Made by a program: the position numbers and the translations under genes. The notes under the pieces were generated by a model, which saw nothing but the letters and a program-made list of their open reading frames with translations, searched no databases and had not been told where the DNA came from. Below are positions 1,749 through 63,593 of a stretch of DNA of 64,000 bases, in pieces. The first letter of the stretch is position 1; each line of letters opens with the position of its first letter. This DNA comes from an uncultured Phycisphaeraceae bacterium. Lineage in GTDB: Bacteria; Planctomycetota; Phycisphaerae; Phycisphaerales; UBA1924. The DNA lies in NCBI GenBank assembly GCA_964630785.1, contig CAZVZG010000001.1:207427-271426 (forward strand), in the 5' to 3' direction.

Positions 1749-1975
1749 ACTTGGGCGGCCTCCCTCCGTCCCCCCCCACCCCCTCCCCCGCGTGCCCGCG
1801 GCCGGCTCTGCCGCAACCCGGCTGCAACCACGGCTGATGGCCCGACTACAACCGTTGGCGGCCGCGGAACTCACCCGACACCCGAACTTCGTCCGATCAA
1901 TGTTGTCGGAGTGGGGAGCGGCGAGCGGAACGGCCGCCAACCCTCTCGGGGATGGGGCGTGGCTCGGGAGCAGGC

Positions 1976-2785
1976 ATGACGGGCATTGCGGGGCAATCAG
2001 GCGGCGTGCGCACGCGGCGGTTCATCCGGCCCGCGTTCACGCTCATCGAACTGCTCGTGGTCGTGGCCATCATCGCCATTCTCGTGGGCATCACGATGCC
2101 CGCCCTCGGCAACGCCCGCGAGACGGCCCGGCGCGTCAAGTGCGCGGCCAACCTGCGCAGCCAGGGCCTGGCCCTGCAACTCTACATGGACGATTCCAAG
2201 GGCGTGCTGCCGGCGACACAGCCGCTCTACGACCCCAACTACGACATCGACCACCCGCCGCAGAACACGACCCAGACCGCCCACATCATCCACGTCCTCG
2301 CCAAGTACATGAACCTCGCCCTCCCCACGCCGGAGGACCCCTCGCGAACGCCCCCGCTCTACACCAACGTCTCCGACGTGCTGATCTGCCCGTCCGACCG
2401 CTCCAGCAAGGACGCCGAGACCGGCTACCAGCCCGTTTGGCGGGGCAACGGCTGGAGCTACTCCTACTTCGCCGGCGAACTCATGCTCGCGGGCGACTTC
2501 CTGACCATCCCGCCCGCCGTGCTCGCGCCCGCCGTGACCAAGACGTACGAGCAGATGCGCTGGAAGGACCTGCCGGTCATCTTCGACTTCGACGATTGGC
2601 ACAAGCTGCGCAAGGGCAAGAACCAGCCGCCGCGGAACTGCGTGTACTTCGGCGACTGGCGGGCCGATTGGGCCACCGACCTCACCAAGTATCAGAACCA
2701 GGCCCTCCGGGCCGACCAGTTGTGGGCCGAGCTGGTGTGCGACATCGGGCGGTTCGGCGGCCTGCACCTGCCGGGGTGCAACTGA
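1976..2785 (+). CDS. Prepilin-type N-terminal cleavage/methylation pseudopilin, DUF1559-like (Planctomycete type)
   Basis: '[26 protein letters not shown]' class-III signal; body resembles the DUF1559 family; start chosen at an internal ATG with a short leader. Confidence 0.75.
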
Positions 2786-11495: not shown

Positions 11496-11772
11496 GGGCG
11501 GCGGTCCTCGTCGGATGGGGTACGGGGTAGGTGGATTGGGAGGGTGAAAGGGATGTTGCGGCTGGGAACGAGGGATGAGGGAGTGGTGGGGAACGAAGGC
11601 TATTCCGGCGGGGAGTGATCGCGTCGGCGTGCGAGAAGCGGTCGCGCCCACGAACTCTTCCGGCACATTTCATCCACCGAGCCGCCGGCGGGTCCGGAAA
11701 GCGGTGGTGCCCGCCGTGCGTGGAATGTAAGTTATGTCTGCGGGCGCACGCGGGACGCGCAGGGAGGCTGTC

Positions 11773-12423
11773 ATGTCGCGGACGGTTCGATGGGGAGCGG
11801 GCGTGGTCGCGCTGGCCTTCGCGGCGACGGGGGCCTCTGCCCAGTTCGCGCAGTTCACGATCGACGCCGAGCACGCCTCCGGCCAGGCTGGTGGGGCGGC
11901 GTTTTCCAACGAGCCCGTCCGCTTCACCTTCCTGATGAACACTCAGACGGGTACGGCGGAGTTCGGCGGCGGCGGGGGCAGCACGATCTACGAGGACGTG
12001 GCCACGTCGGCCTGGCTGGATATCGGCGGCGATCGGTACGAGCGGCAGGGGCTCGGGCGGCTGTTCCTCACCGAGGACGAGGGCTTCGACTACCTCGTCG
12101 CCGATGTGTTCGGTCTGCACGCCACCTTCTGGCGGAACTGGACCGACGGTCCGTTCACAGACCCGTCGTTCGAGGCCCCGCTGAACACGGTGCTCCTGCC
12201 CGGCACGTACGAGCCGTTGCTGCTCGACCCGCGCTTCGGCGACGTGCTGCCCAACCGGCTGAGCGGCGTGTTTGACTCGCCGGGCGGGCAGGTCGGCGTC
12301 ACCGGCGCGGACATCCACCGCCTCACGCTGACGATCGTGCCCTCGCCCGGCTGCATGGGCGCGGCGGGGCTCGCGGGGTTGGGCTGGTGGGCGGGGCGGC
12401 GCCGGCGTTCGCGCCCGGCCTAG
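11773..12423 (+). CDS. Secreted protein with PEP-CTERM-like sorting tail
   Basis: Signal peptide 'VVALAFAATGASAQ'; C-terminus 'VPSPGCMGAAGLAGLGWWAGRRRRS' (PEP-like motif, TM helix, Arg cluster); 'agggagg' RBS. Confidence 0.6.
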   Translation: MSRTVRWGAGVVALAFAATGASAQFAQFTIDAEHASGQAGGAAFSNEPVRFTFLMNTQTGTAEFGGGGGSTIYEDVATSAWLDIGGDRYERQGLGRLFLTEDEGFDYLVADVFGLHATFWRNWTDGPFTDPSFEAPLNTVLLPGTYEPLLLDPRFGDVLPNRLSGVFDSPGGQVGVTGADIHRLTLTIVPSPGCMGAAGLAGLGWWAGRRRRSRPA

Positions 12424-43022: not shown

Positions 43023-43841
43023 TTGCTGCACGTCTCACACCCCGCCGCTTGCGCCGCCACCGTCCCGAGCGGCGAGCAGCTCCGCGTCACCCTCGCGACC
43101 CTCGCGCTCGGGTTCGTTTACGATCCCCCGGCCTTGTCTCCTCGACCAGCCCAACCCCGGCCGCTTTCGCCCGACGATGCCCGGGACCTCGCGCTCATCG
43201 AGCGCATCCGCGCCGGCGGTCCCGCCGATCGTGCGGCCTGGGGTGAGATGGTCCGCCTCTACCAAGACCGCATCTTCTCGGTCTGCATGAAGATGCTGCG
43301 CGACCGCGAGGCCGCGGCCGACCTCACCCAGGAGACCTTCGTCCGGCTCATCCAGGGGCTGGAGACGTACGACGGACGGTCCAAGCTCAGCACCTGGCTC
43401 ATCCGCGTGGCCATGAACGCCTGCCTGAGCTACCTGCGGGCCCAGAAACTGCGCAAGCACGCCAGCCTCGACGCCGGTCTGCCGCCATCACTTATTCGGG
43501 GGATTGGTGTTCGGGCTTCGGAAGGGGGATTGGGATCGGGCGGTCGAGCGCAAGGGGCGGGGCGGGAACAAACGCCCGGTCAGAGCGTCGAACTGCATGA
43601 GCAGCGGCGGCGTGTGGCCGCGGCACTCGCCGGCCTTGAGCCCGATCAGCGGGCGATCCTCATTCTAAGGGACGTGCAGGGCCTGGAGTACGAGCAGATC
43701 GCCGTCGTCCTTGAGATCGCCGGGGGCACGGTCAAGAGTCGGCTCTTCAGAGCCCGGATGGCCCTGAGAGAGGCACTCGAAAAACTGGAATCCCGCCCTC
43801 CCCCACCGTCCCCCCCTCCCCCCCAAGTCCCTCGTCCCTAG
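43023..43841 (+). CDS. ECF-type RNA polymerase sigma-70 factor (with N- and C-terminal extensions)
   Basis: Region 2 'DLTQETFVRLIQGLETYDGRSKLSTWLIRVAMNACLSYLR'; region 4 'LILRDVQGLEYEQIAVVLEIAGGTVKSRLFRAR'; start uncertain. Confidence 0.7.
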   Translation: MLHVSHPAACAATVPSGEQLRVTLATLALGFVYDPPALSPRPAQPRPLSPDDARDLALIERIRAGGPADRAAWGEMVRLYQDRIFSVCMKMLRDREAAADLTQETFVRLIQGLETYDGRSKLSTWLIRVAMNACLSYLRAQKLRKHASLDAGLPPSLIRGIGVRASEGGLGSGGRAQGAGREQTPGQSVELHEQRRRVAAALAGLEPDQRAILILRDVQGLEYEQIAVVLEIAGGTVKSRLFRARMALREALEKLESRPPPPSPPPPQVPRP

Positions 43842-43867: not shown

Positions 43868-45109
43868 GTGTTCCGCTACGACGACATCATCCGCGACCTG
43901 CCGGCCGGCCTCACCGAGACCGACCTGGTCGACATGGTCGACGGGACGGTGCCGGCCGAGCGGGAGTGGGTGGTGATCGACGCGCTTCAGGCCAACCCGC
44001 AACTGGGGCTGTTGGTGAAACAGCTTCGGATGGACCGCCTGGGCATGACGATGCTCGCCGACGACGTGGAAACGGCGCCCGCGAACATGAGGGAATCGAT
44101 CGAGGCTCGGCTGGATCGCCAAGCCCTGAACGAGCTGGTGCACGAGGCGGAAGAGGCATCCGCCCCGATCCCCATCAGCCGTGTTCAGCCGATCGGTTCG
44201 GGCGCCGGTCGCGGCCTGATCCGGGTCATCGCCGAGAGTGTGTGGGCGCGGCGAATGGCGACCGCCGCCTCCATCGCGATCGTCGGCGGCCTGGGCGTGC
44301 TGGGCGTCCGCGAGTTGCTGCGCAAGTGGCCGCGTCTGCCGGGGACTGTTCCGGTGGCTTCGACCGCGAGCGGAACTCAGGCCGCGCCGGGAGACGTGCC
44401 GGACGTGAAAATCGCCGGCGCGGGCGACGAGCCTGCTCCACCGGCCGAATCACAGTCGCCGACCGAGATTGCCGCAGGCCCCGCGCCGAACACACAGGCG
44501 CAGCCGGAGCAGGCGACCGAACGCCCGCTCACCGCGGCCGAGGCGGTCGCGCTGGCCCAGGAGGGTCGGCTCGTCATCACGGTGCGCACCTCGAAACTCG
44601 AAGGCACGCTTAAGCAGCTCGAGAGCATGTCGCGTGCGTCCGCCTCCACGGACATGCGCTGGCGCTCGCAGGACCTGGCCAACCTCCCCATCGAGATGGC
44701 GATGCTGGCCGTGCCGCTGCCCGACCCGACGCTGGACCCGCGCCCGCCGATGGACCCCGCGTTGGTCGGGCCGGTCCAGCCGCCGATCATGGCGTCGGAT
44801 GCGCACGCGGCCCCGGCCCCGGGCGTGCAGGCCCCGCGCCCGCAGCCCGCGGCGATCGGGTTCGCCCCGCCGCAGGTGCGCGTGCGGGCGATCCGCACGG
44901 TGCAGATGAGCGCGGACGTGCAGGAGCTCGAAGACCTGCTGAGCGACCTCAACGTATCCAAAGACGCGGTCGCGAGGTTCCGCGTGCTGCCCACGCCGAT
45001 CGAGGACCGCCCCTCGCTCGACCCCGAGAGCGTGCTGTGGTGGACCGCCGGATCGGACGGCTGGACGCACAGGGTCACGCTGCCGATTGTCGTGGAGACG
45101 GTCGAATAG
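43868..45109 (+). CDS. Putative anti-sigma factor (single-pass membrane protein)
   Basis: Immediately downstream of the ECF sigma gene; central TM 'AASIAIVGGLGVLGV'; Pro/Ala-rich periplasmic part. Confidence 0.45.
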   Translation: MFRYDDIIRDLPAGLTETDLVDMVDGTVPAEREWVVIDALQANPQLGLLVKQLRMDRLGMTMLADDVETAPANMRESIEARLDRQALNELVHEAEEASAPIPISRVQPIGSGAGRGLIRVIAESVWARRMATAASIAIVGGLGVLGVRELLRKWPRLPGTVPVASTASGTQAAPGDVPDVKIAGAGDEPAPPAESQSPTEIAAGPAPNTQAQPEQATERPLTAAEAVALAQEGRLVITVRTSKLEGTLKQLESMSRASASTDMRWRSQDLANLPIEMAMLAVPLPDPTLDPRPPMDPALVGPVQPPIMASDAHAAPAPGVQAPRPQPAAIGFAPPQVRVRAIRTVQMSADVQELEDLLSDLNVSKDAVARFRVLPTPIEDRPSLDPESVLWWTAGSDGWTHRVTLPIVVETVE

Positions 45110-45315: not shown

Positions 45316-46395
45316 TCACGGACATCCGGCGAAGTACGCGGCCAGGAAATCGAAGATGTCCTGCACCGAGATGCCCCCGCTGTGGTTGAAGTCCGCCGTC
45401 GGGCTGTTGCCGAAGTACGCCGCCAGAAAATCGAAGATGTCCTGCACGGAGACGTCGCCGCTCTGGTTGAAATCGGCAGGGCAGGATTGATCGGGGACCA
45501 GGGCGATGTCGTTGACCGAGCCGAGCGAGGAAATGACGGTCTCCTGGTTGTTCCCGTCGAGGTCCATCCGTCGGATCTCGCCGTAGATGAACCCGTCGCT
45601 GTCGAAGTCGTTGACGTCTTGCCCCCAATAGAGCTTGCCGTTGGGCAGGTCGAGCACGATGCCCTTCGGCGGGCCGACGAACGTGCCGGTGAAGAGCGGC
45701 TCCATGTTGGAGCCGTCGAGATTCGATCGACGGATCGTGCGGGTCACGGCGTCGGTCCAGTAGATCTTTCCGGCCGCGGCGTCGAGCGCAAGGTTGCCCG
45801 GCTTGAAACTCGACCCGACCGTGGGCACCGCGACCTGCGGGTCGGACCCGTCGAGGTTGGAACGGTTGATGCGCCCGGTGGCGGCGGTGAGAGAGACGGT
45901 CCAATAGAGGCGGTTGCCGGCGTGGTCGATCGCCAGGCCGCGGAAGAACGACGTCGAAAACAGGGGAAGCCCGCCGCCCGCGAGCGGCGCGGACCCGACG
46001 ACCTCGTTGGTCTGATCGCCCCAGAAGAGCGCCCCCGCGGCGAGGTCGAGGCGAAGCGCCGAGGGGAACGCCAGGCCGGAGTTGACGACGTCCTGCTGGC
46101 CCGTGCCGTCGAGGTGGGCCCGCCGGATGACGAAGTTGTCCACGTCGGTCCAGTAGATGTAACCACCGGCGGCGTCGACGTCGAGACCGCGAACGCCGCC
46201 GCCGGTCGGGACAACCGTGTGCAGCCCGACCCCGTCCGTGCGGACGCGCCGGATCGAGTTGCCGTCCGGGTCCGCGGCGTTGAGCACGTCGGCGAAGATC
46301 AGGTCGTCAGCCATCGCGGGCAACGCCAGCGCGCCCAGCGCGAGCACGGCTATGAGGTGGAGGCGCATACAGGGCTCCCGGTGCAGGCCGCGCAC
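45316..46395 (-). CDS. Secreted YWTD-type beta-propeller protein with C-terminal tandem dockerin-like 'DIFDFLAAYF...GCP' modules
   Basis: Signal peptide 'LIAVLALGALALPAMA'; repeated 'YWTD/YWTV/YWGQ' blades; C-terminus 'ADFNQSGDVSVQDIFDFLAAYFGNSPTADFNHSGGISVQDIFDFLAAYFAGCP'. Confidence 0.7.
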   Translation of the reverse strand: MRGLHREPCMRLHLIAVLALGALALPAMADDLIFADVLNAADPDGNSIRRVRTDGVGLHTVVPTGGGVRGLDVDAAGGYIYWTDVDNFVIRRAHLDGTGQQDVVNSGLAFPSALRLDLAAGALFWGDQTNEVVGSAPLAGGGLPLFSTSFFRGLAIDHAGNRLYWTVSLTAATGRINRSNLDGSDPQVAVPTVGSSFKPGNLALDAAAGKIYWTDAVTRTIRRSNLDGSNMEPLFTGTFVGPPKGIVLDLPNGKLYWGQDVNDFDSDGFIYGEIRRMDLDGNNQETVISSLGSVNDIALVPDQSCPADFNQSGDVSVQDIFDFLAAYFGNSPTADFNHSGGISVQDIFDFLAAYFAGCP

Positions 46396-46772: not shown

Positions 46773-49217
46773 TCAGTGCCTGAGCGTCACCTTCGTGGTG
46801 TTGTTGCTCATCCACGCGTCGCTCGCGTCGGTGACGGTCAACCGGATCTTGATCTGCTGATCGATCGTCCAGTTCAGCCGACTCGACCAACCGAACTTCA
46901 GCCGATGCACCGCGGCCGTCGCCTCCGACGGCAGGCCGATGAACTGGTACCGGCCGCGACGCAGGCGCTCAAAGCCGCTGGAGTTGATCGAGCTGGTGAT
47001 GAAGTCGCCCTTCCGCGGCAGATTGATCGTCACCGTCACCGTCACGGGCTGGGCCGGGTCAACGTCCGTGATCAGCACGCGCCGGAACGGCTTGACGTTC
47101 CTGTTGAATCTCATCGTGCTGTTGGTCAGGCGCGTGAACACGGGGGCGTCGTTCACCGAGTCGATGGTGATGTCCGCGGTCTGGGCCGCGACGGCCGGGC
47201 CCAGTCCGTCGCTCACGTACACGCCAAAAGAAAGGTTCGCGGCGTTCCCGACCGGCGCGATGTTCTCGCTCGGGCGGAAGACCAGTTGGCGGATGGCGGC
47301 CGTGGCCGCGCCGGCGTTGCCGGTGAAGCGGTACGTGCCCGTTGCGCCCATGACCAGCGCAAAGCCGCTGGCCGCGAGGCTCTCGGGCGTGAGCACGCCC
47401 ACACCGGCACCGAGCACGACGTCGACCGTCAGCGTTGGCGGCCCGAAGTCGACGGTGGTGATCGTGGTCTGCGTGAAGGGGGCGAGCGTGTCTTTGTCGG
47501 AGATGTGGAACGGCCCGCCCGCGACGGCGAGCACGGGCTCGTTGCGCACGGACCGCGACGCGATGAAGGGGCTGAACGCCTGGGCGCCAACGCCCAGCCC
47601 GTCGTTTGCGGTGATCGTAAAGAGCGTAACCGAGGACTGGCCGACGGGGGCGATGTTCTCGGCGGGCTTGAACACGAGCTGGCGGATCGCGGCCGTCGCG
47701 CTCGCCGCGGCGCCCGTGAAGCGGTACGCGCCGGTCGCCGCGTTCACGGCCGTGAACCCGGCCGCGTTGAGACTGGCGCTGGTGAGCACGCCGCGGGAAG
47801 CGTCGTTGATGGTCAGGTCGATGGTCAGCGCCCGCGACGCGCTGTCGATGTAGCCGATCGTCACCGCCTGGAAGGGCGTGACGGTCTGATTGTCGTTGAG
47901 GGTGAACGAGCCGCCGGTGGGCTGGGGGCTGGAGACGGTCGGCGCATCGCGCACCGGCAGCACCGACAGCGCCGACCACACGCTCTGGTCGCTCACCGTG
48001 CCCTGCAAGAGCGGTGAGCCGATATCGGCGTGCGTGCCGGCATCGCCGGCGATCCGGTCCCAGGCGCGGAAGCGGAGCGCCTGGCCGATCGAGCCGTTGA
48101 AGTTCGCGCCGGGGACGAAGCGGACTCGGGTCGTGGCGTCGGCCGCGAGCAGCAGGGCCGACCCGTCGGAGACCGCCCCGACGGCGTTCCACGTGGAACC
48201 GTTGAGCGAGTATTGCCACACGCCGGCGGCCGCGTCCAGACCGGTGATCGCGATCCCGCTGAGGGCGCCCGGGCTGGGGTCGGTGACGAGGCCCGCGGTG
48301 AGGCTGCTCACGAGCGAGCCGGCGTTGTTCGCGTCGTCCTCGTTGATCGCGCCGAGCGCGGGCGTGGGACCGGGAGCGATTGCCGGAGCGCGCCGGGCCG
48401 GCTCCATCGCCATGCCGCGGATGGTGTACTGCGAGCCATCGCCGATCGTGCCGATCTCGACAAAGCTGTGGCCGTCTTCGCCGATCGTGCCGAACTTCTG
48501 CACGCCCGCGACCCGCAGGGAGAGGTACGGCGTGCCGTCGGCGGCGTAGTCCAGGCCGACGAAGCGGTCGGTGTCGACGCCCAGCGACCCGCCGCCGAGG
48601 ACGGTCATGCGCTCGGGGTCGAGGTCCATGAACTCGTCGGTGATGTAGTTGACCCCACTGAAGCCGAAGTTGTCCGGGTCGCCGTTGAGCGGCCGGTACG
48701 CGATCTCGGCCAACCCCTCCTGGCCGGCGTCGTTACGGAGCTGGAGGCCGGTCGCGGGGTCGAGGCGGTAGTTGCCGAAGGTCTCGTCGATGTACCGGAG
48801 ATAGCCGTGCAGCTCGTCGTACGCGAGCCCGGTCGCCTGGCTGGTGGGGAAGCCGAAGGGCACGCCGGGCCCGACGCGCGTGGCGACGCCGGTGAGCCGG
48901 TCGATGGTGTACACCGGCGTGCGCGTGCCGCTGGGGATGCCGTAGAGCCGCTCGCCGACGGTGTCGAAGTCGAGCGCGCTCATGACCTCGCCCGCACCCA
49001 GGCCCGTGATCGGCAGCGAGCGAACGATGGCCGCGGGGTTGGCCGAATCGAACTCGAGCAGCGTGTTGTTGTCGGTGACGGCGAAGACGCTGGAGAGGAA
49101 CTGGCGCGATTCGAGCGCCTCGACGGCCTCGCCCGCGCTGGCGGTCAGCGCGTGCGACAGCCCGGCCGAACCCCTCTTCCCCCTCCTGAGGGACGATTGC
49201 GAACCGTGGGAACGCAT
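46773..49217 (-). CDS. Large secreted adhesin-like protein with N-terminal DUF4394-like region and Ig-like/VCBS-type repeats
   Basis: 'SVNDAPVFT' cadherin/VCBS-type motif; repeated ~100-aa beta-sandwich-like segments; N-terminal region resembles DUF4394. Confidence 0.6.
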   Translation of the reverse strand: MRSHGSQSSLRRGKRGSAGLSHALTASAGEAVEALESRQFLSSVFAVTDNNTLLEFDSANPAAIVRSLPITGLGAGEVMSALDFDTVGERLYGIPSGTRTPVYTIDRLTGVATRVGPGVPFGFPTSQATGLAYDELHGYLRYIDETFGNYRLDPATGLQLRNDAGQEGLAEIAYRPLNGDPDNFGFSGVNYITDEFMDLDPERMTVLGGGSLGVDTDRFVGLDYAADGTPYLSLRVAGVQKFGTIGEDGHSFVEIGTIGDGSQYTIRGMAMEPARRAPAIAPGPTPALGAINEDDANNAGSLVSSLTAGLVTDPSPGALSGIAITGLDAAAGVWQYSLNGSTWNAVGAVSDGSALLLAADATTRVRFVPGANFNGSIGQALRFRAWDRIAGDAGTHADIGSPLLQGTVSDQSVWSALSVLPVRDAPTVSSPQPTGGSFTLNDNQTVTPFQAVTIGYIDSASRALTIDLTINDASRGVLTSASLNAAGFTAVNAATGAYRFTGAAASATAAIRQLVFKPAENIAPVGQSSVTLFTITANDGLGVGAQAFSPFIASRSVRNEPVLAVAGGPFHISDKDTLAPFTQTTITTVDFGPPTLTVDVVLGAGVGVLTPESLAASGFALVMGATGTYRFTGNAGAATAAIRQLVFRPSENIAPVGNAANLSFGVYVSDGLGPAVAAQTADITIDSVNDAPVFTRLTNSTMRFNRNVKPFRRVLITDVDPAQPVTVTVTINLPRKGDFITSSINSSGFERLRRGRYQFIGLPSEATAAVHRLKFGWSSRLNWTIDQQIKIRLTVTDASDAWMSNNTTKVTLRH

Positions 49218-55543: not shown

Positions 55544-58500
55544 TCAGCCCGGGCAGCCGGTGAAGTATGCGCCCAGGAAGTCGAAGATGTCCTGCACGGT
55601 GATGCCGCCTGAACTGTTGAAGTCCGCGCCGGGCTGCCCGCCAAAGTAAGCCGCGAGGAAATCAAAGATGTCCTGCACGGTCACGCCGCCCTGCTGGTTG
55701 AAGTTGGCCGGGCAGCATGCGACCGGGTTGCCGGCGCCGCCGCAGGCCGAGCCTGCGCCCACGAACGCGCCCGAGCAGTCGGCGGCGGTCGCGACGGTGC
55801 AAGTCGTCCCGTTGCAGCAGGCCCCCGTGGGCTGCGGGCAGGGGTTGGGGCTGCACGCCGAGCCGACCCCCATGAAGCTGTCGGAACACCCGGCCGTGGT
55901 GGCGATGTTGCAGGCGCCATCGGTCGCGCAGCAGGCGCCCGTGGGTTGCGGGCATTGGTTGGGGCTGCACGTTGAGCCCGCACCCAGGAAGTTGTCGGAG
56001 CATCCGGCCGCGGTCGTGGCGATGCACGTGCCGTCTGTGGCGCAGCAGGCGCCGGTGGGCTCGGGGCAGGGGTTGGGATCGCAGACCCCGCCGCTCGTCC
56101 AGGCACGTCCCGCGTCGCAGTCGGCTTGCTCGCTCATGACGCACCCGCCCAAGGCCGAGCAGCAGGCGCCGGTGGGCTGCGGGCATGGGTTGGGGTTGCA
56201 CACGGCGTCGCCGGGCGCGAACGTGCCGGTGGAGCAGCCCGACTGGTCGGACACCGTGCAGCCGCCGTCGGCGGCGCAGCAGGTGCCCAGCGGCTGCTCG
56301 CAACCGGGCACCTCGCACGTGGTGCCGTTGCCGCTGAACGTGCTCGTGCCCAGGCACTCGCTGGAGGCGGTGATCGTGCACCCGCCCGAGGAGTCGCAGC
56401 AGGCGCCCACGACCGGCGTGAACGTCAGGATGACGTCGGCGGTGCCCGTCTGCCCCACGATGATGCTGCCGATCTGGAAGAGGTAGGTGTGCCCGTCCTG
56501 CACAAAGACGTTGAAGGACGAGCCGAAGTCGTCGCAGCCGACGGCTGCGCCGGGCGGGCAGTTGCCGCCGTGGTAGACCGCGACGCGGCTGCTGAACGGC
56601 GTGGGCGACCCGGCGGTGGCGCTGTCGGTCGTCACGTTGAGGTTGCCGTTGGCGGGCGCGACCCACGTGTACCAGACGTCCTGGTTGATCGGTCCGGCCG
56701 CGGGGCAGCCCGTGCCGGGAAAGCTCTGAATCAAGCCGGTCGTGGCGTTGGTGTTGGTGAACGGGCGCGGCCCGGCGACGCTGCCCCACGAGATCGGCGC
56801 CGCGCAATCGTCGTTGGCGGGCGGGGTGTTGGTGACGCTGAAGACACCGTTGGCCGTGGCCACCTGGCCGGTGCCGTCGGCGTTGCTGATCGTGACGTTT
56901 CGCGAGCCGACCGCGGCGCCGGCGCCGATGACGAACGACAGGCCGTTGACGGTCGAGCCGCCGCCGGAGATCACGGGCGTTCCGGTGACCGTGACCCCGC
57001 CGCCGGAGACCGTGACCTGCGAAGCGCTGCTCACGCCCGCGAGATTGACGCCGGTGATGGTGACCGGGATCGTCGCGCCGGACTGGCCCGTGTTGGGGGT
57101 GACTGACGAGATGCTGCTCACCGCGCCCACCACCGCCACGCTTATCGTGTCCGTCGCGGACATGCCGTTGGAGTCGGTGACGCGCAGCGTGACGTTGAAC
57201 AGGCCGTTGGAGTTGTACGTGAACGTGGGCTGGGGGTTATCGAGCGTCTCGAAAACGCCGTTGCCGTCCAAGTCCCAGTCGTAGCTGGCGTTGTTCAGGA
57301 TCGCGCCGCTCTCGTTGGTGCGCGAGTTGAGGTTGCCCATGAAGTAGCAGACCTGCCCGGCCGCAACGCGCTTGTTCACGCCGGCGATCGCCGTCGGCGG
57401 GGCCTTGGAGTTGCCCACGCGGATGGTCAGGTCGTAGAGCTGCACGATCTGGTCGTTCGGACCGTCGGGCCCCGAGTCGATGACACGCACCGTGTACGTC
57501 CCCGCGCTCAGGCTGCCGGCCGGGATGCTCTCGGTGGCGCCCGCCGCGGCGCTGTTGGCCTGGAGCAGGACGGTGCTCCCGTTCGAGTCCCGCAGCTCGA
57601 CGTCCAGGTTCCCCGCCGCCGAGGCGTTGACGGCGGGCGGGCTGGTCGGGTTGCACCCGCCCGACTGCTGACCGTTGGCGTAACTGCCGCCCGTTGGTAC
57701 CACCGTGATGGTGACGTTCTGGGCCGACGAGAGCGTGAACTTGAACCAGTCCTGGTTGGTGTTGTTGATGCCCGCGGCGCCGTTGGTCGAGAGGCTCCGC
57801 TCGATGATCGACTTGAGCACGGGCGAGGTCAGGTCGCCGAAGTCCTTGGCCGAACCGGCGGAGTTGTTGCCGGCGAACCGGTCGCCGTAGTTGCGCTGAG
57901 CGCCGCGCAGCTCGTCGACCTGCGTCATCTCGAAGTTGGTGTTGGCGAACGGCTCCATGAGCTTGGTGCCGTTGCAGGGCGTGGTGTGGATGAACCCCAG
58001 CCCGTGCCCGTGCTCGTGGGCCACCACGTTGCGGAAGTACCGGAAGTTGCTCGACCCCCCGAACATGCTGCCGGTGTTCAACTCGTCGGAGTTGATCACC
58101 ATGTCCGAGCCGCCGTTGGGGAAGTAGTTGTACGCCAGCACGCCCGTGTTGCCCTGCGGACGCGAGCCGATGCGCACTTCACCCCCGCCGGCCGCCCCGG
58201 CCGAGCCGGTGAACGGCGAGTTGTTGTCGGCGACCTCGGTGTAGCTCAGACCGCTGTAGCGTCGCCACGACGCCAGCGCCTGTCGGACGTACTCGCGCCC
58301 CCGGTCGATGTTGGCCGTCCCGAACTGCGCGTTGAACTTCGAGTTGAGGTTGTTCGACCCGCCGTCCCACGACACGCCGTCGTTGGGGAACGAGAACCGC
58401 AGGCTCGCCGGCGTGGCCCGGCCCGAGGCGCCCTGACCGCCGTTACCGGTCCACACCAGGTTGCTCGTGAAGAACCGGTTGTTCAGCCCATCTTGCAACA

Positions 58501-58828
58501 CACCGCCCACGGGCAGGGCGTTGAAATGCTGCATGATGTACTCCATCTGCTCGGGCGTCGGGTTGGCCACGAAGCAGCGGGGGGCCTGCGCCACCATGTC
58601 CAGGAGCAGCGTCCGTCGTTCTCGGGCCTGCGAGGCCGTCTCTCCCATGGGCGCGGCCGCATCGCTGCGCTCCACCAGGGCGTCCAGACGCTCGCCCAGG
58701 CCGTCGTGGGGCTTGGCGGTCGCCGCCGTGGTCTCCGCGGCCGCCCGGCCGAGGCACGTGCCCGCCGCCATCAGGGTGACGAGAAACACCGTGGCCACGT
58801 GGCCCGTACAAAACCCATTCGACTTCAT
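55544..58828 (-). CDS. Giant secreted multidomain protein: metzincin-like Zn protease, PPC, PKD, IPT/TIG and 7 six-Cys repeats, ending in tandem dockerin-like GCP tail
   Basis: Signal peptide 'VATVFLVTLMAAGTCLG'; 'VVAHEHGHGLGFIH' HExxHxxGxxH; PKD 'YDWDLDGNGVFE...FNVTLRVTDSNG'; repeats 'NPCPQPTGACCxxDGxC...'; C-terminus 'VQDIFDFLAAYFGGQPGADFNSSGGITVQDIFDFLGAYFTGCPG'. Confidence 0.75.
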   Translation of the reverse strand: MKSNGFCTGHVATVFLVTLMAAGTCLGRAAAETTAATAKPHDGLGERLDALVERSDAAAPMGETASQARERRTLLLDMVAQAPRCFVANPTPEQMEYIMQHFNALPVGGVLQDGLNNRFFTSNLVWTGNGGQGASGRATPASLRFSFPNDGVSWDGGSNNLNSKFNAQFGTANIDRGREYVRQALASWRRYSGLSYTEVADNNSPFTGSAGAAGGGEVRIGSRPQGNTGVLAYNYFPNGGSDMVINSDELNTGSMFGGSSNFRYFRNVVAHEHGHGLGFIHTTPCNGTKLMEPFANTNFEMTQVDELRGAQRNYGDRFAGNNSAGSAKDFGDLTSPVLKSIIERSLSTNGAAGINNTNQDWFKFTLSSAQNVTITVVPTGGSYANGQQSGGCNPTSPPAVNASAAGNLDVELRDSNGSTVLLQANSAAAGATESIPAGSLSAGTYTVRVIDSGPDGPNDQIVQLYDLTIRVGNSKAPPTAIAGVNKRVAAGQVCYFMGNLNSRTNESGAILNNASYDWDLDGNGVFETLDNPQPTFTYNSNGLFNVTLRVTDSNGMSATDTISVAVVGAVSSISSVTPNTGQSGATIPVTITGVNLAGVSSASQVTVSGGGVTVTGTPVISGGGSTVNGLSFVIGAGAAVGSRNVTISNADGTGQVATANGVFSVTNTPPANDDCAAPISWGSVAGPRPFTNTNATTGLIQSFPGTGCPAAGPINQDVWYTWVAPANGNLNVTTDSATAGSPTPFSSRVAVYHGGNCPPGAAVGCDDFGSSFNVFVQDGHTYLFQIGSIIVGQTGTADVILTFTPVVGACCDSSGGCTITASSECLGTSTFSGNGTTCEVPGCEQPLGTCCAADGGCTVSDQSGCSTGTFAPGDAVCNPNPCPQPTGACCSALGGCVMSEQADCDAGRAWTSGGVCDPNPCPEPTGACCATDGTCIATTAAGCSDNFLGAGSTCSPNQCPQPTGACCATDGACNIATTAGCSDSFMGVGSACSPNPCPQPTGACCNGTTCTVATAADCSGAFVGAGSACGGAGNPVACCPANFNQQGGVTVQDIFDFLAAYFGGQPGADFNSSGGITVQDIFDFLGAYFTGCPG

Positions 58829-59135
58829 CGCTACCTCCGCTATTTCCGATCGAGGGCTGAAAAGCCCCGGGCGAACGGCCCGAGAATCGCGGACACGGCT
58901 CCGCAGTCCAACCGGCGCCGGCCCGTCGAGCACGATCCCATACGCCGAGGGCCAGTCATCGGCTCCATCCTACCCGCAAGTCAGTCCACAACACGCCATA
59001 TCTCGGAAACGCGCGCACGATAGAGCAGGACCACGCCACCGAGCGAGGGCAAGCCACCGGCTGGATTCGGTGATCTTGCGGCCTTTCCACGCCATTGCCG
59101 GGGGGCCCCGAACCGAGCCCTTCACCCCCAGAACG

Positions 59136-62100
59136 TCAGCCGGGGCAGCCCTGGAAGTACGCCCGCAGGTAGGCGAACAGGTCTTCGAGCGTTACGGCAC
59201 TGTCTCCGTTGAAATCCGCGGCTAGCGACTGCAACTGCCACGCGGCAAGGTAGTCGAACAGGTCCTGAACACCCACGCCGTTCACGCCGTTGAAGTTGGC
59301 CGGGCAGCAGGTGGTCGGGTTGCCGGTCGGGCCGCACGCGACCCCATCGCCCTGGTACGCGCCGCCGCTGCACGAGCCCGCATCGGTCACCACGGTGCAG
59401 GTGGTCCCGGCGCAGCACGCACCGCCCGAACTCGGGCAGCCAGCGAAGTACGCCGCGAGGAAGTCGAAGATGTCCTGCACGCTCACGGCGCCCGAACCGT
59501 TGAAATCAGCGCTGGGGTCCACCGCGAAGTACGCGCCCAGGAAATCGAAGATGTCCTGCACACTCACGCCGTCCATGCCGTTGAAGTTGGCCGGGCAGCA
59601 GGTCGTCGGGTTGCCCGGCGTGCCGCACACGGTGCCCGCGCCCTTGAACACCGCCGGCGCGACGCAGCCGGCCGCGGCCAGGAGGGTGCACGTCGTCCCG
59701 TCGCAGCAGGCGCCGGTGGGCTGCGCGCACGGGTCGGGCGTGCAGGTCTGGGCCGGCAGGAACGTCCCGCCCAGGCACGCGGACTGCAGCACGACCGAGC
59801 ACGCGCCGCCCGCGCCGCAGCACGCGCCGGGCTGAGCGCACGGGCTGGGCGAGCAGGTCTGGCCCGGCACGAACGCGCCGCCCTGACCGTTGCACGCAGC
59901 CGGGGTGAGCCCGGAGACGCACGCCCCCGTGGAGACGATGCAGCACACCCCGCTGGGTGGCGGGCACAGCGTCGGCGAGCAGGCCGCGCTGGCGTGCCAC
60001 GCGCCCGAGGTGCAGTCGGCCTGAAGCACGAACGCGCTGCACAGGCCGCTCGCCGTGTCGCAGCACGCCCCGCGCGGCGGGGGGCAAACGCCCGGGTCGC
60101 ATACGGTGACCGACGAACTGAACGTGCCGGTGCACTCGCCCGGCGTATTGACAACCGAGCAATCGCCGGTCGGCGAGCAGCAGACGCCCGGCGTCGGCTG
60201 GGCGCACGGGTCGGGCGTGCAGACCGCCCCGACCGTCCACCCGCCGGCGCACGCGGAGTGGGTAGTCACGGCGCAGCCGGATACGGTGCAGCAGGCGCCG
60301 GTCATCTGCGCGCAGGGGTCCGGGTCGCACACGCCGTCGGCCGTCCACGCGCCGGGGCAGTCGGCCTGGAGCGTGATCTCGCACGCCAGGTCGGGCACGC
60401 AGCAACTCCCGGTCGAGGTCTGGCAGCTCGCGGGCGTGCACGCCGCGCCGGGCGAGAACACGCCGTTGGAGCACTCGGCGAGCGTGGCGTTCACGCACTG
60501 CCCGTCGGGCAGGCAGCACGCCCCGGGCGGCGGCGGCGGGCAGGGGTTCGGGGCGCACGCGCCGCCGGGGGCCCATGAGCCCGAGCAACCGGTCTGCGGG
60601 CTGAGCGTGCACGAGCCGTCGGCGTGGCAGCACGAACCGACGGGCTGCGGGCACGGGTTGCCCGCGCAGGTCAGCCCGAGCGGGTTCCAGTCGCCGCCGA
60701 TACAGTCGGCCTGGGTGATGATCGAGCACTGACCGCTGGGATAGCAGCAGCGTCGCAGCGGCTGCGGGCAGGGGTTGGGCGAGCAAACGTTGGCCGCGTT
60801 GAACAGCCCATCGCACGACACCGGCGCGACGTTCATCGTGCACGCGCCAGTGTTCGCGTTGCAGCACGAGCCGACCAGGTCGGCAAAGGCCAGGTCCACG
60901 CAGGCCGACCCGACGTGGCCCTCGTTCACGCCCCCGACGCGGAACAGCAGGCGGTCGCCGATCTGCACGTTCAGCGTGAACATCTCGCCGCAGGCCAGCA
61001 GGTTGACCGACGCGGGCGGGCACGCGATCGGGCCCGCGGGCAGTCGGTACGCGGCCACGACGCTCGGGAACGGCGCGGGCGTCGCGCCGGCCTCGTTGCT
61101 CCGCGAATGAACGCTCAACATCCCCGTCTGCGAGGCGGTCCAGACGTACCACACGTCGTTGTGCAGCGTCGAGCCCTCGCAACCCGAGCCGGTGTAGTCT
61201 TGCTCTTCGCCGGTGGTCGCGCCGCGGCTGTCAAAGGGCTTGCACCCCGGCCCGGCCGTCCAGATGTCGGGCGCGGAGCACCCGTCGTTCGGGGGAGCGG
61301 GAACGGCGTCCAGCACCGTGATCGCGCTGTCAAGGAACCCGGCGGTGCACCCGTCGGTGATGCGCACGTCGCGAGCGCTCAGCTCCGCATCGGCGGCCAC
61401 GGTAATCGTCAGCCCGGTGATGGAAGTCCCGGCTCCGCCGACCACGGGCACGCCGCCGAGCGTCACGCCTGTGCCCGACACCGTGATCTGGTTGAGCGCC
61501 ATGACCGCGCCCAGGCCGGTGCCGGTGATCGTGATCGGGATCGTCGTGCCGCGGTACGCAAACGCGGGCGTGACCGATGTCACGGAGATCGGCGCGCCGG
61601 TTACCGTAACGAAGATCGTGTCCGTGGCCTGAAGCCCCGCGGCCGGGTCGGTCACGCGCAGCGTGACGGGAATGATCCGGTTCTGATCGGTGTAAAGGGC
61701 GAAGGGAAATCGCGGGTTGTTGGGAAACTGACCCTCGGGCGGGTTGTCGAGGCTGTCGATGTTGATCTCGAACGTGCCGTCGCCGTCGAGGTCCCACTCG
61801 AAGTTGGCCGTGCGCGAGCTCAGCGGTTCGCTGTTGGGGTCCTGCGAGCGGGACAGCAGGTCGCCGATGAACTGCACGTACTGCCCCAGCGGGGCGTACT
61901 TGTCCACGCCGGCGACGGCGTAGGGCGAGTACTTCACCGGGTTCTCGTCGGGGCCGAGGCGGACGGACAGGTCGTAGAGCTGCGTGGGCTGGTCGGCCAG
62001 GTAGCTCGCGCTCCCGCCCGAATCGAACACGCGGATGTAGTAGGTGCCCGCGGGCTGCACGCCGGCGTCGATCGTCTCGACCGCGCCGGCCGCGTTGGTG

Positions 62101-63593
62101 TTGGCCTCGCGGAACGGCGTGCCCTCGCCGTCGCGGAAGAACTGGATGTCGAGGTTGCCGATGGCGACGGCGTTGACCGAGGTTGCCGGGCCGGAGCACG
62201 GCGCGGGGCTGCCATCGACCTGCTGGCCGTTGACGTAAGCGTCGCCCGTCGGCGTCACCTTGATCACGATCCGCTGCGGGTTCTCGATCGTGAACCTGAA
62301 CCAGTCCTCCCCGGAGGGGTTGGGCAACATCGTGCCCGGGTTGATGACCGGCCCGTTGGTCGAGAGGTCTCGCTCCAGCACCGAGTGCGGGTGCAGGCCC
62401 AGCGCCGGCTCGTTGTGGTCGAGCGCGACCGACACCGGGTCGTTGGCGTTGCCCAGGCTCGGGTACCGGGCCGAGTCGGTCGGCGGGTTGCCGGGCGTGA
62501 TGATCCATTGACGCCCCAGGTCCCGCGCCGCCTCGCGCGTCTGGTTGCCCGCGAAGCGATCGCCGTAGTTGTGCTGCGCGCCCCGCTTCTCGTCGATCTG
62601 CACCATGTCGTACACGGTCGACGAGAACGGCTCCATCAGCTTGGTCTGGCTGCACGGGATCACGTGCCGAAAGCCCAGGCCGTGTCCGTGCTCGTGCGCG
62701 ATCACGTTGCGCAGGTAGCGGTACCCGTTGCTGGCCGAGAAGTACGGGGGCGGCGCCGTGTCACCCGGCTCGACGAAGTAGCTCGAGTTGAGCACCATGT
62801 CGCCGCCGAACTCGGGGAAATAGTTGAACGCCAGCACGCCGAACCCCTCGCCCTGGGCGTAGGAGCCGAAGCGGATGTCGCCGTGCGTGCCCGGACCGGC
62901 CGGTGGGAACGGGTCCCACGGCGCGTCGTCGTCGCACACCTCCATGTACCGCACCGAGCACGCGCGTTCCCAGCCGGCAAGCACCTGGCGGAACAGCTCG
63001 CGACCGTACGCGACGCCCGGCCCCGGCAGCGCCGGCAGCGGCGGATCGACCGACGTGTCCGGCATGGTCCGACCGATGAGGTCGGCGCTCAGGCGGTTGA
63101 GCTGGCCCTCCGGCCCCCACACCACGCCGTCATTCGGGAACGAGTACGTCAGCAGCGAAATCGGCTTGGCCTGGCCGATCTGCGTTGTGAACGCCGCGCC
63201 GCTCCCGTCCCACGCGCTCACGTCCAGGAAGAACCGGTTGTTGAGGCGGGTGATCCGCTCGGCGGGGTTGCGCCCGCCGTAGTACGCCGCGATCGCTTCG
63301 AGCTGCGCCGGCGTCGGGTTGCCGATGAAGCAGCCCTCCGCGTTGCGGATTCGTTCCAGCAGCCTCGTGCGCCGCGCGCCCGGCGCTTCGCCGGCGCGCT
63401 CGGCATCGCGCGTCGCCAGGTCGAGCAGCGTCTGCAACGTGCCGTCGGCCGCCGGCGCGGCCGAATCTCTCAAGCGCGCACCGACCCCATCGGGCGCGAA
63501 CGCGCCGTGCGCGACCGAGCCCGCGAGGAGCGCCGCAGCCGCACATCCCGCGGCCGCAGCCGCCCGAGCCGATCTCTTCGCCATGCTCGCCAT
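59136..63593 (-). CDS. Paralogous giant secreted protein: metzincin-like Zn protease, PPC, PKD, IPT/TIG and 15 six-Cys repeats, with two pairs of dockerin-like GCP modules
   Basis: 'VIAHEHGHGLGFRHVIPCSQTKLMEP'; same domain order as 55544..58828; C-terminus has 2 dockerin-like modules, one extra Cys repeat, then 2 more modules ending 'AYFQGCPG'. Confidence 0.75.
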   Translation of the reverse strand: MASMAKRSARAAAAAGCAAAALLAGSVAHGAFAPDGVGARLRDSAAPAADGTLQTLLDLATRDAERAGEAPGARRTRLLERIRNAEGCFIGNPTPAQLEAIAAYYGGRNPAERITRLNNRFFLDVSAWDGSGAAFTTQIGQAKPISLLTYSFPNDGVVWGPEGQLNRLSADLIGRTMPDTSVDPPLPALPGPGVAYGRELFRQVLAGWERACSVRYMEVCDDDAPWDPFPPAGPGTHGDIRFGSYAQGEGFGVLAFNYFPEFGGDMVLNSSYFVEPGDTAPPPYFSASNGYRYLRNVIAHEHGHGLGFRHVIPCSQTKLMEPFSSTVYDMVQIDEKRGAQHNYGDRFAGNQTREAARDLGRQWIITPGNPPTDSARYPSLGNANDPVSVALDHNEPALGLHPHSVLERDLSTNGPVINPGTMLPNPSGEDWFRFTIENPQRIVIKVTPTGDAYVNGQQVDGSPAPCSGPATSVNAVAIGNLDIQFFRDGEGTPFREANTNAAGAVETIDAGVQPAGTYYIRVFDSGGSASYLADQPTQLYDLSVRLGPDENPVKYSPYAVAGVDKYAPLGQYVQFIGDLLSRSQDPNSEPLSSRTANFEWDLDGDGTFEINIDSLDNPPEGQFPNNPRFPFALYTDQNRIIPVTLRVTDPAAGLQATDTIFVTVTGAPISVTSVTPAFAYRGTTIPITITGTGLGAVMALNQITVSGTGVTLGGVPVVGGAGTSITGLTITVAADAELSARDVRITDGCTAGFLDSAITVLDAVPAPPNDGCSAPDIWTAGPGCKPFDSRGATTGEEQDYTGSGCEGSTLHNDVWYVWTASQTGMLSVHSRSNEAGATPAPFPSVVAAYRLPAGPIACPPASVNLLACGEMFTLNVQIGDRLLFRVGGVNEGHVGSACVDLAFADLVGSCCNANTGACTMNVAPVSCDGLFNAANVCSPNPCPQPLRRCCYPSGQCSIITQADCIGGDWNPLGLTCAGNPCPQPVGSCCHADGSCTLSPQTGCSGSWAPGGACAPNPCPPPPPGACCLPDGQCVNATLAECSNGVFSPGAACTPASCQTSTGSCCVPDLACEITLQADCPGAWTADGVCDPDPCAQMTGACCTVSGCAVTTHSACAGGWTVGAVCTPDPCAQPTPGVCCSPTGDCSVVNTPGECTGTFSSSVTVCDPGVCPPPRGACCDTASGLCSAFVLQADCTSGAWHASAACSPTLCPPPSGVCCIVSTGACVSGLTPAACNGQGGAFVPGQTCSPSPCAQPGACCGAGGACSVVLQSACLGGTFLPAQTCTPDPCAQPTGACCDGTTCTLLAAAGCVAPAVFKGAGTVCGTPGNPTTCCPANFNGMDGVSVQDIFDFLGAYFAVDPSADFNGSGAVSVQDIFDFLAAYFAGCPSSGGACCAGTTCTVVTDAGSCSGGAYQGDGVACGPTGNPTTCCPANFNGVNGVGVQDLFDYLAAWQLQSLAADFNGDSAVTLEDLFAYLRAYFQGCPG

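Follow-up and report, generated by a model that had tools for sequence, protein, structure and literature searches.

Genes and modules at the locus

Translations and a six-frame pattern scan of the 64-kb window (the whole stretch of DNA analysed here, 64,000 nucleotides) show four copies of a double module, or eight half-repeats, confined to three minus-strand genes (Table 1). The shared C-terminal tail described in a first-pass annotation is thus real and lies where that annotation placed it. Its description as a tail on three unrelated proteins holds for the number of proteins but not for their unrelatedness: the two M10 and PPC proteases are paralogues, which share domains and fall into one cargo cluster, so that the module is found on two unrelated types of cargo rather than three. 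Across the three translated open reading frames, the consensus reads CPA[DN]FN-x5-V-x-VQDIFDFLxAYF-x5-ADFN-x5-[VI]-x-VQDIFDFLxAYF-x-GC and measures 54 residues from Cys to Cys, and all three proteins end in ...GCP or ...GCPG. The invariant N-terminal Cys codon of the module in the YWTD protein (45481-45483) lies just beyond the range first assigned to it, which begins at the Pro codon. Two of the genes are shorter than their open reading frames if alternative starts are used: the YWTD propeller gene spans 45316-46368 with a start at MRLHLIAV, and the M10/PPC/PKD/TIG metalloprotease gene spans 55544-58828 with a start at MKSNG, an NCBI record existing for the resulting 1094-aa product.

In addition to the double modules, both proteases contain a tandem repeat of about 31-37 residues with six cysteines, (PQPTG)ACC-x-DG-x-C-x7-C-x-F-x-G-x-G-x-x-C-x-PNPC (spacing CC-C-C-C-C), which is present in 6 copies in the 1129-aa protease and 12 copies in the 1485-aa protease and gives no Pfam match at E<=1. 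In the 1129-aa protease, the final repeat overlaps the 'CC' that precedes PANFN: its last Cys is also the first C of that pair. In the 1485-aa protease, the Gly-Cys end of the internal double module is followed by PSSGGA, a further six-Cys unit and then the second double module. This association extends to the family at large, as a six-Cys unit directly precedes the module in 117 of 161 members. The repeat could form a rigid, disulfide-rich stalk.

Table 1. Features of the window discussed in the text.
Feature	Position	Strand	Description
ORF	45316-46395	-	YWTD / LDL-receptor class B propeller protein; Ldl_recept_b E=7.5e-13
GC-type dockerin double module	45322-45483	-	C-terminus of YWTD propeller protein; NF041540 37.3 bits
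Protein X, 418 aa	54190-55446	+	No Pfam or NCBIfam match
ORF	55544-58933	-	1129-aa protease; M10 matrixin, PPC, PKD, TIG domains
GC-type dockerin double module	55553-55714	-	C-terminus of M10/PPC/PKD/TIG metalloprotease; NF041540 33.4 bits
Six tandem six-Cys repeats	55715-56401	-	Directly upstream of dockerin, 1129-aa protease; about 32-35 aa each
ORF	59136-63593	-	1485-aa protease; M10 + PPC domains; two double modules, one internal
GC-type dockerin double module	59145-59306	-	C-terminus of 1485-aa protease; more divergent
Single six-Cys repeat	59307-59417	-	Between the two dockerins of 1485-aa protease
Internal GC-type dockerin double module	59436-59597	-	1485-aa M10 protease; NF041540 62.7 bits, 2 stretches (whole protein)
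Eleven tandem six-Cys repeats	59598-60866	-	Upstream of internal dockerin, 1485-aa protease

The window has a G+C content of 70%, and its remainder is ordinary chromosome, with genes for topoisomerase I, polyphosphate kinase, phosphoglucomutase, gamma-glutamyltranspeptidase and an Mrp/ApbC ATPase. The neighbour of the YWTD gene encodes an 814-aa protein (46773-49217, minus strand) with an N-terminal DUF4394 domain, several repeated units of ~110 residues and a weak tandem-95 repeat match; the 'LESRQFLS' in its N-terminus resembles the LExRxLLS-type N-terminal motif of large planctomycete secreted proteins. On the plus strand, an ECF sigma factor gene (43023-43841) is followed by a gene for a 413-aa protein with no family match (43868-45109), possibly an anti-sigma factor. 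This pair is convergent with the dockerin-bearing YWTD gene, and ECF sigma factors recur near dockerin genes elsewhere (5 members in 5 loci). Further away, a 229-aa protein (11734-12423, plus strand) with a signal-peptide-like N-terminus and no Pfam match ends in PGCMGAAGLAGLGWWAGRRRRSRPA, where an Arg cluster comes after a hydrophobic span in the manner of a PEP-CTERM-type sorting tail, which suggests that a second, different C-terminal sorting system operates in the same genome.

The modules also resemble one another in their DNA. The 15-mer GAAGATGTCCTGCAC occurs six times in the window (positions 45352, 45433, 55583, 55664, 59466 and 59547; five copies are exact and the sixth has one mismatch), where 0.05 occurrences are expected, which confirms the six sites first reported, at positions that differ slightly from those then quoted. 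The first-pass annotation read this conservation as a sign of recent domain shuffling or gene conversion within the genome. Besides the excess of the 15-mer over chance, such an origin is favoured by the use of GTG for Val at all six VQDIF sites, although GTG accounts for 51% of Val codons, and by identical codons being slightly more numerous than expected between the paralogous proteases (30 against 25.7, and 24 against 19.3). However, at residues that the YWTD module shares with the protease modules, the number of identical codons is just what codon usage in the window predicts (observed and expected, 29 and 27.7, 25 and 25.8, 17 and 17.0). Moreover, nucleotide identity between modules (57-79%) tracks amino-acid identity (50-80%), and in other species of Phycisphaerales, 70 of 166 VQDIF sites (42%) are encoded by the same 15-mer. 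Codon identity and the count in other species thus lead us to reject gene conversion, which is extremely improbable as the source of the similarity; a conserved peptide encoded under strong codon bias is enough to account for the repeat.

Family membership and predicted fold

All three window proteins match the NCBIfam model NF041540 (dockerin_GC; scores in Table 1, curated cut-off 29 bits) over its full length (model positions 1-67) at their C-termini, and NCBI names their homologues 'GC-type dockerin domain-anchored protein [Phycisphaerales bacterium]'. The module is a GC-type dockerin domain, a family already catalogued, and the window proteins are ordinary members that share with NF041540 the Gly-Cys ending and the lineage, with no difference at family level. 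With a curated model in place and homologues named accordingly, the proposal that the module marks a new cargo class finds no support, and the annotation value of the locus is routine. To what is known of NF041540, the present analysis adds a putative disulfide staple, the coupling to six-Cys units, the family size and a census of cargo. The literature searched contains no paper that names 'GC-type dockerin' or NF041540, and no experimental paper, structure or binding partner for the domain.

Kinship with canonical dockerins is not demonstrable at sequence level. Pfam Dockerin_1 (PF00404) gives no match at E<=10 with isolated modules or at E<=0.01 with full proteins, and EF-hand models (PF13405 and PF00036) stay below their gathering scores (EF-hand_6, 20.7 against 25 bits; EF-hand_1, 18.3 against 25.4 bits), for which reasons membership of either family was rejected; precomputed EF-hand matches are present on a few homologues. 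Alignment with hhalign to two PDB-verified type I dockerins yields a probability of 11% over 15 Ca-loop columns only, with a template profile built from two sequences. In a profile search of the PDB, the top-ranked sequence match is a dockerin, but with an E-value of 0.28. Structure prediction, proposed as a check when the module was first noticed, gives two helices: the AlphaFold model of the module at 55553-55714 has a pLDDT of 90.3, with helices at residues 14-26 and 41-53. The module is predicted to adopt a dockerin fold, that is, a duplicated F-hand in which a loop-helix unit occurs twice and the helices run antiparallel.

An alignment of 195 modules shows how both halves are built. In the loop of the first and second repeats, respectively, position 1 is Asp in 61% and 95% (Asn in 39% and 5%), position 3 is Asn in 96% and 97%, position 6 is Gly in 78% and 74%, position 9 is Thr or Ser in 92% and 87%, and position 12 is Asp in all modules. 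Of the loop positions that bind Ca2+ in canonical dockerins (1, 3, 5, 9 and 12), four are conserved, but position 5 is Val or Ala in 32% and 35%, leaving one Ca2+ ligand often absent, and Ca2+ binding is for this reason not assured. The helix residues V10, Q11, D12, I13, F14, D15, F16 and L17 are conserved at 85-100% in both halves, and the linker that joins the halves is 5 residues long in every one of the 195 modules. Such conservation of the helices suggests a constraint beyond the usual need of fold stability, and it is equally compatible with a protein and a glycan ligand.

The ending described as an invariant Gly-Cys-Pro is so only in the window. Among 261 relatives, the last Cys is followed by nothing (100), Pro (59), Ala (30) or Ser (20), and what the family keeps is Gly-Cys followed by just 0-2 residues, as seen in 260 of the 261. 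In an alignment of 46 sequences, two cysteines are invariant, one ahead of [P/R/K]-A-D-F-N, where it precedes by three residues the Asp/Asn that opens the first loop, and the other in the terminal Gly-Cys. Where the module start reads 'CC', the preceding 45 residues mostly hold 6 Cys, equal to one complete six-Cys unit, and where it reads a single C they mostly hold none. The mature proteins of the window contain 2 (YWTD protein, both within the module), 46 and 88 (proteases) Cys residues, all even numbers. The antiparallel course of helices 1 and 3 in a dockerin fold brings both ends of the chain together. Taking into account the paired invariant cysteines, their parity and the adjacent chain ends of this fold, the ends of the module are most likely clamped by a disulfide bond between the two invariant cysteines.

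Distribution and cargo

A profile search over 1.84 billion cluster representatives (50% identity) returns 12,985 matching representatives at E<=1e-3 and 4,405 at E<=1e-10. The domain ends no more than 2 residues from the C-terminus in 138 of the 139 top representatives, and 19 of these 139 contain two or more copies. When one genome of each GTDB species is scanned, at least 467 matches are confirmed, the best 80 of which all fall in Phycisphaerales or Phycisphaeraceae metagenome-assembled genomes (MAGs), except for one on a 2.7-kb contig labelled Verrucomicrobiota. Judged by these best matches, the family is restricted to one clade, the Phycisphaerales. Single MAGs carry at least 34, at least 31 and at least 22 distinct copies. 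The source genome of the window, too, probably encodes one or more members elsewhere: the three window proteins are NCBI records on a contig of 304,252 bp, and a 76-aa GC-type dockerin ORF is listed for a contig of equal length. In 78 loci together with the window, 143 of 859 called genes bear the domain, always at the C-terminus, and these genes often stand in tandem arrays of four to six.

The proteins to which the domain is attached are diverse, as 139 cargo regions fall into 87 clusters, chiefly of peptidases, glycosidases and adhesin repeats. Pfam domains of the cargo include peptidases (S8, M36, C25, M12A, M1 and M12B), glycoside hydrolases (GH81 and GH13), other enzymes (BD-FAE esterase and multicopper oxidase) and adhesin-like or repeat domains (FG-GAP, Ig, PKD, beta-helix and TSP1). 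Among the dockerin-bearing proteins, 77% have a hydrophobic segment at the N-terminus; among the others, 39% do. The copy numbers per MAG, the number of clusters and the range of Pfam domains bear out the early suggestion that the module tags a large and varied set of secreted proteins in one clade. Much of the predicted secretome carries the domain in this planctomycete order, which is widespread in the environment.

Proposed docking function and comparison with known systems

The dockerin fold, the symmetric conservation of the helices, the C-terminal placement on exported enzymes and the occasional double dockerins together argue for a role in docking. We consider it likely that the GC-type dockerin, as a duplicated, disulfide-clamped F-hand at the C-terminus of exported Phycisphaerales cargo, docks non-covalently to a common partner. 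Helix faces that are near-invariant and equally conserved in both halves fit a single shared partner, possibly with a symmetric dual binding mode. The two units, each consisting of a 12-residue Ca2+-type loop and an amphipathic helix, would form a compact 54-residue domain; the cargo would be exported via Sec, after which the domain would fold oxidatively and dock its cargo non-covalently, probably in a Ca2+-dependent manner, onto the common partner at the cell surface or on a scaffold. By analogy with cohesin-dockerin systems, exoenzymes would thereby stay cell-associated.

The partners first envisaged, a cohesin, a sortase or a peptidase, are identified neither in the window nor among recurrent neighbours or cargo-scan families. 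No cohesin was found in the scanned window proteins, the recurrent neighbours or the listed cargo-scan families, and neighbour clustering over 78 loci reveals no peptidase or transpeptidase family that recurs beside dockerin genes. The neighbours that do recur in these 78 loci are generic, namely ABC ATPases, Ser/Thr kinase-WD40 proteins, a T2SS ATPase, DUF1559 pseudopilins and ECF sigma factors.

Family X (420-450 aa), represented in the window by protein X (Table 1), is the only recurrent neighbour of unknown kind. In dockerin-centred loci it adjoins a dockerin gene in 9 of 10 cases, and in the three X-centred loci whose DNA was scanned no dockerin gene adjoins the X homologue. Protein X has 38 homologues, of which the source-named ones are labelled hypothetical and the few organism-named ones are Phycisphaerales. 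It apparently has no signal peptide, as judged by eye, and its AlphaFold model (pLDDT 86) combines a beta-sandwich with a helical N-terminal domain that may be HTH-like, with weak fold matches (TM 0.2-0.28). The lack of adjacency in these X-centred loci, the apparent lack of a signal peptide and the weak fold matches led us to reject family X as the docking partner; it may be a regulator.

Components of a secretion apparatus are also seen close to the family. A T2SSE ATPase gene (locus L048, 3440-5593) and DUF1559/N-methyl pseudopilin genes (locus L059, 15590-16822; locus L020, 2-1819) recur near GC-type dockerin genes, and a pseudopilin gene is present in the window as well (1952-2785, plus strand). 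These neighbours may hint at the export route, or merely reflect their abundance in Planctomycetota.

That no cohesin was detected in the sets scanned would also suit a dockerin fold with no protein partner, acting as a Ca2+-dependent stabilising or solubility module or binding an envelope polymer such as polysaccharide or peptidoglycan. Many non-cellulosomal dockerins have no known cohesins, and some of the cargo described above acts on polymers. Against this stands the extreme and symmetric conservation of the helices across hundreds of paralogues on unrelated cargo, which suggests one shared ligand, and we regard a partnerless module as rather unlikely.

The first-pass annotation took the C-terminal tripeptide as characteristic of a sorting or processing signal of the T9SS CTD, PEP-CTERM/exosortase or LPXTG/sortase type, in which case a dedicated machine would recognise the domain and afterwards either remove it or use the terminal Cys for covalent attachment of the cargo. 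Folded C-terminal domains, for example the T9SS CTD, can serve as sorting signals, and the GC-type dockerin has in common with them a strictly C-terminal position, with 0-2 residues after Gly-Cys in nearly all relatives, and an occurrence on dozens of diverse cargo proteins per genome, the pattern that marks sorting tags in genomes. Nevertheless, only Gly-Cys is conserved, the residue after it being variable or absent, and the terminal Cys has an invariant partner at the module start, with a parity that fits a disulfide bond. The unit also occurs internally, being duplicated in the 1485-aa protein as in the 19 top representatives with several copies. The tails of the three window proteins contain no transmembrane helix, hydrophobic span or basic cluster; no sorting-domain model reaches its cut-off (TIGR04183 scores 16.4 against 23, at internal residues 435-487); and no enzyme is conserved in the neighbourhood across the 78 loci. 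A role as sorting signal is consequently unlikely. Compared with established C-terminal sorting domains (TIGR04183, PEP-CTERM and LPXTG), which likewise place one tag on dozens of unrelated secreted proteins per clade, the module is predicted to be a helical F-hand pair rather than a beta-sandwich or transmembrane tail, it tolerates internal placement, and no processing enzyme is identified among its recurrent neighbours.

Returning to the proposed docking function, the closest structural parallel is with type I and type II cellulosomal dockerins (PF00404; Clostridium cellulolyticum Cel5A, 2VN5; C. thermocellum, 2CCL and 4FL4), whose fold is the one predicted for the module. Both have a duplicated 12-residue D-x-N-x-x-G-x-[VIL]-x-x-x-D loop followed by a helix, both are internally two-fold symmetric and stand at the C-terminus of secreted enzymes, and double dockerins occur occasionally in each. 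However, despite this common architecture, the GC-type domain does not match Pfam Dockerin_1, aligns with type I dockerin profiles at low probability and over the Ca loop only, and has no known cohesin. It is also shorter, a linker of invariably 5 residues standing where the others have a middle helix, and carries helices of the type VQDIFDFLxAYF instead of the S-T/K-R recognition pairs, a Cys at both termini and an often non-liganding loop position 5. It occurs in diderm Planctomycetota, on cargo that is mostly proteolytic or adhesin.

The nearest idea in the literature searched concerns other Phycisphaerae (Nemodlikiaceae), in which, according to the 'planctosome' hypothesis (Andrei et al. 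2019, ISME J, PMC6461901), cohesin and dockerin modules assemble surface Zn-dependent peptidases. That proposal, itself hypothetical, rests on canonical cohesin and dockerin matches in another family of the class, whereas no cohesin was found here in the scanned window proteins, recurrent neighbours or listed cargo-scan families; the likeness lies in the two Zn-metalloproteases of the window, which bear a dockerin-like tail. It is conceivable, though doubtful, that GC-type dockerins form the cargo side of a Phycisphaerales-specific surface assembly with a non-cohesin receptor, either a novel scaffold or even the tandem six-Cys repeats of giant cargo proteins. The identity of the receptor would explain how these bacteria hold proteases and glycosidases on the cell, and receptor and module together could yield a small disulfide-locked docking pair for protein engineering. 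If such an assembly exists, each cell would hold proteases, glycosidases and adhesins on the receptor by means of dozens of minimal, disulfide-stapled dockerins, in a real 'planctosome' distinct from the cellulosome.
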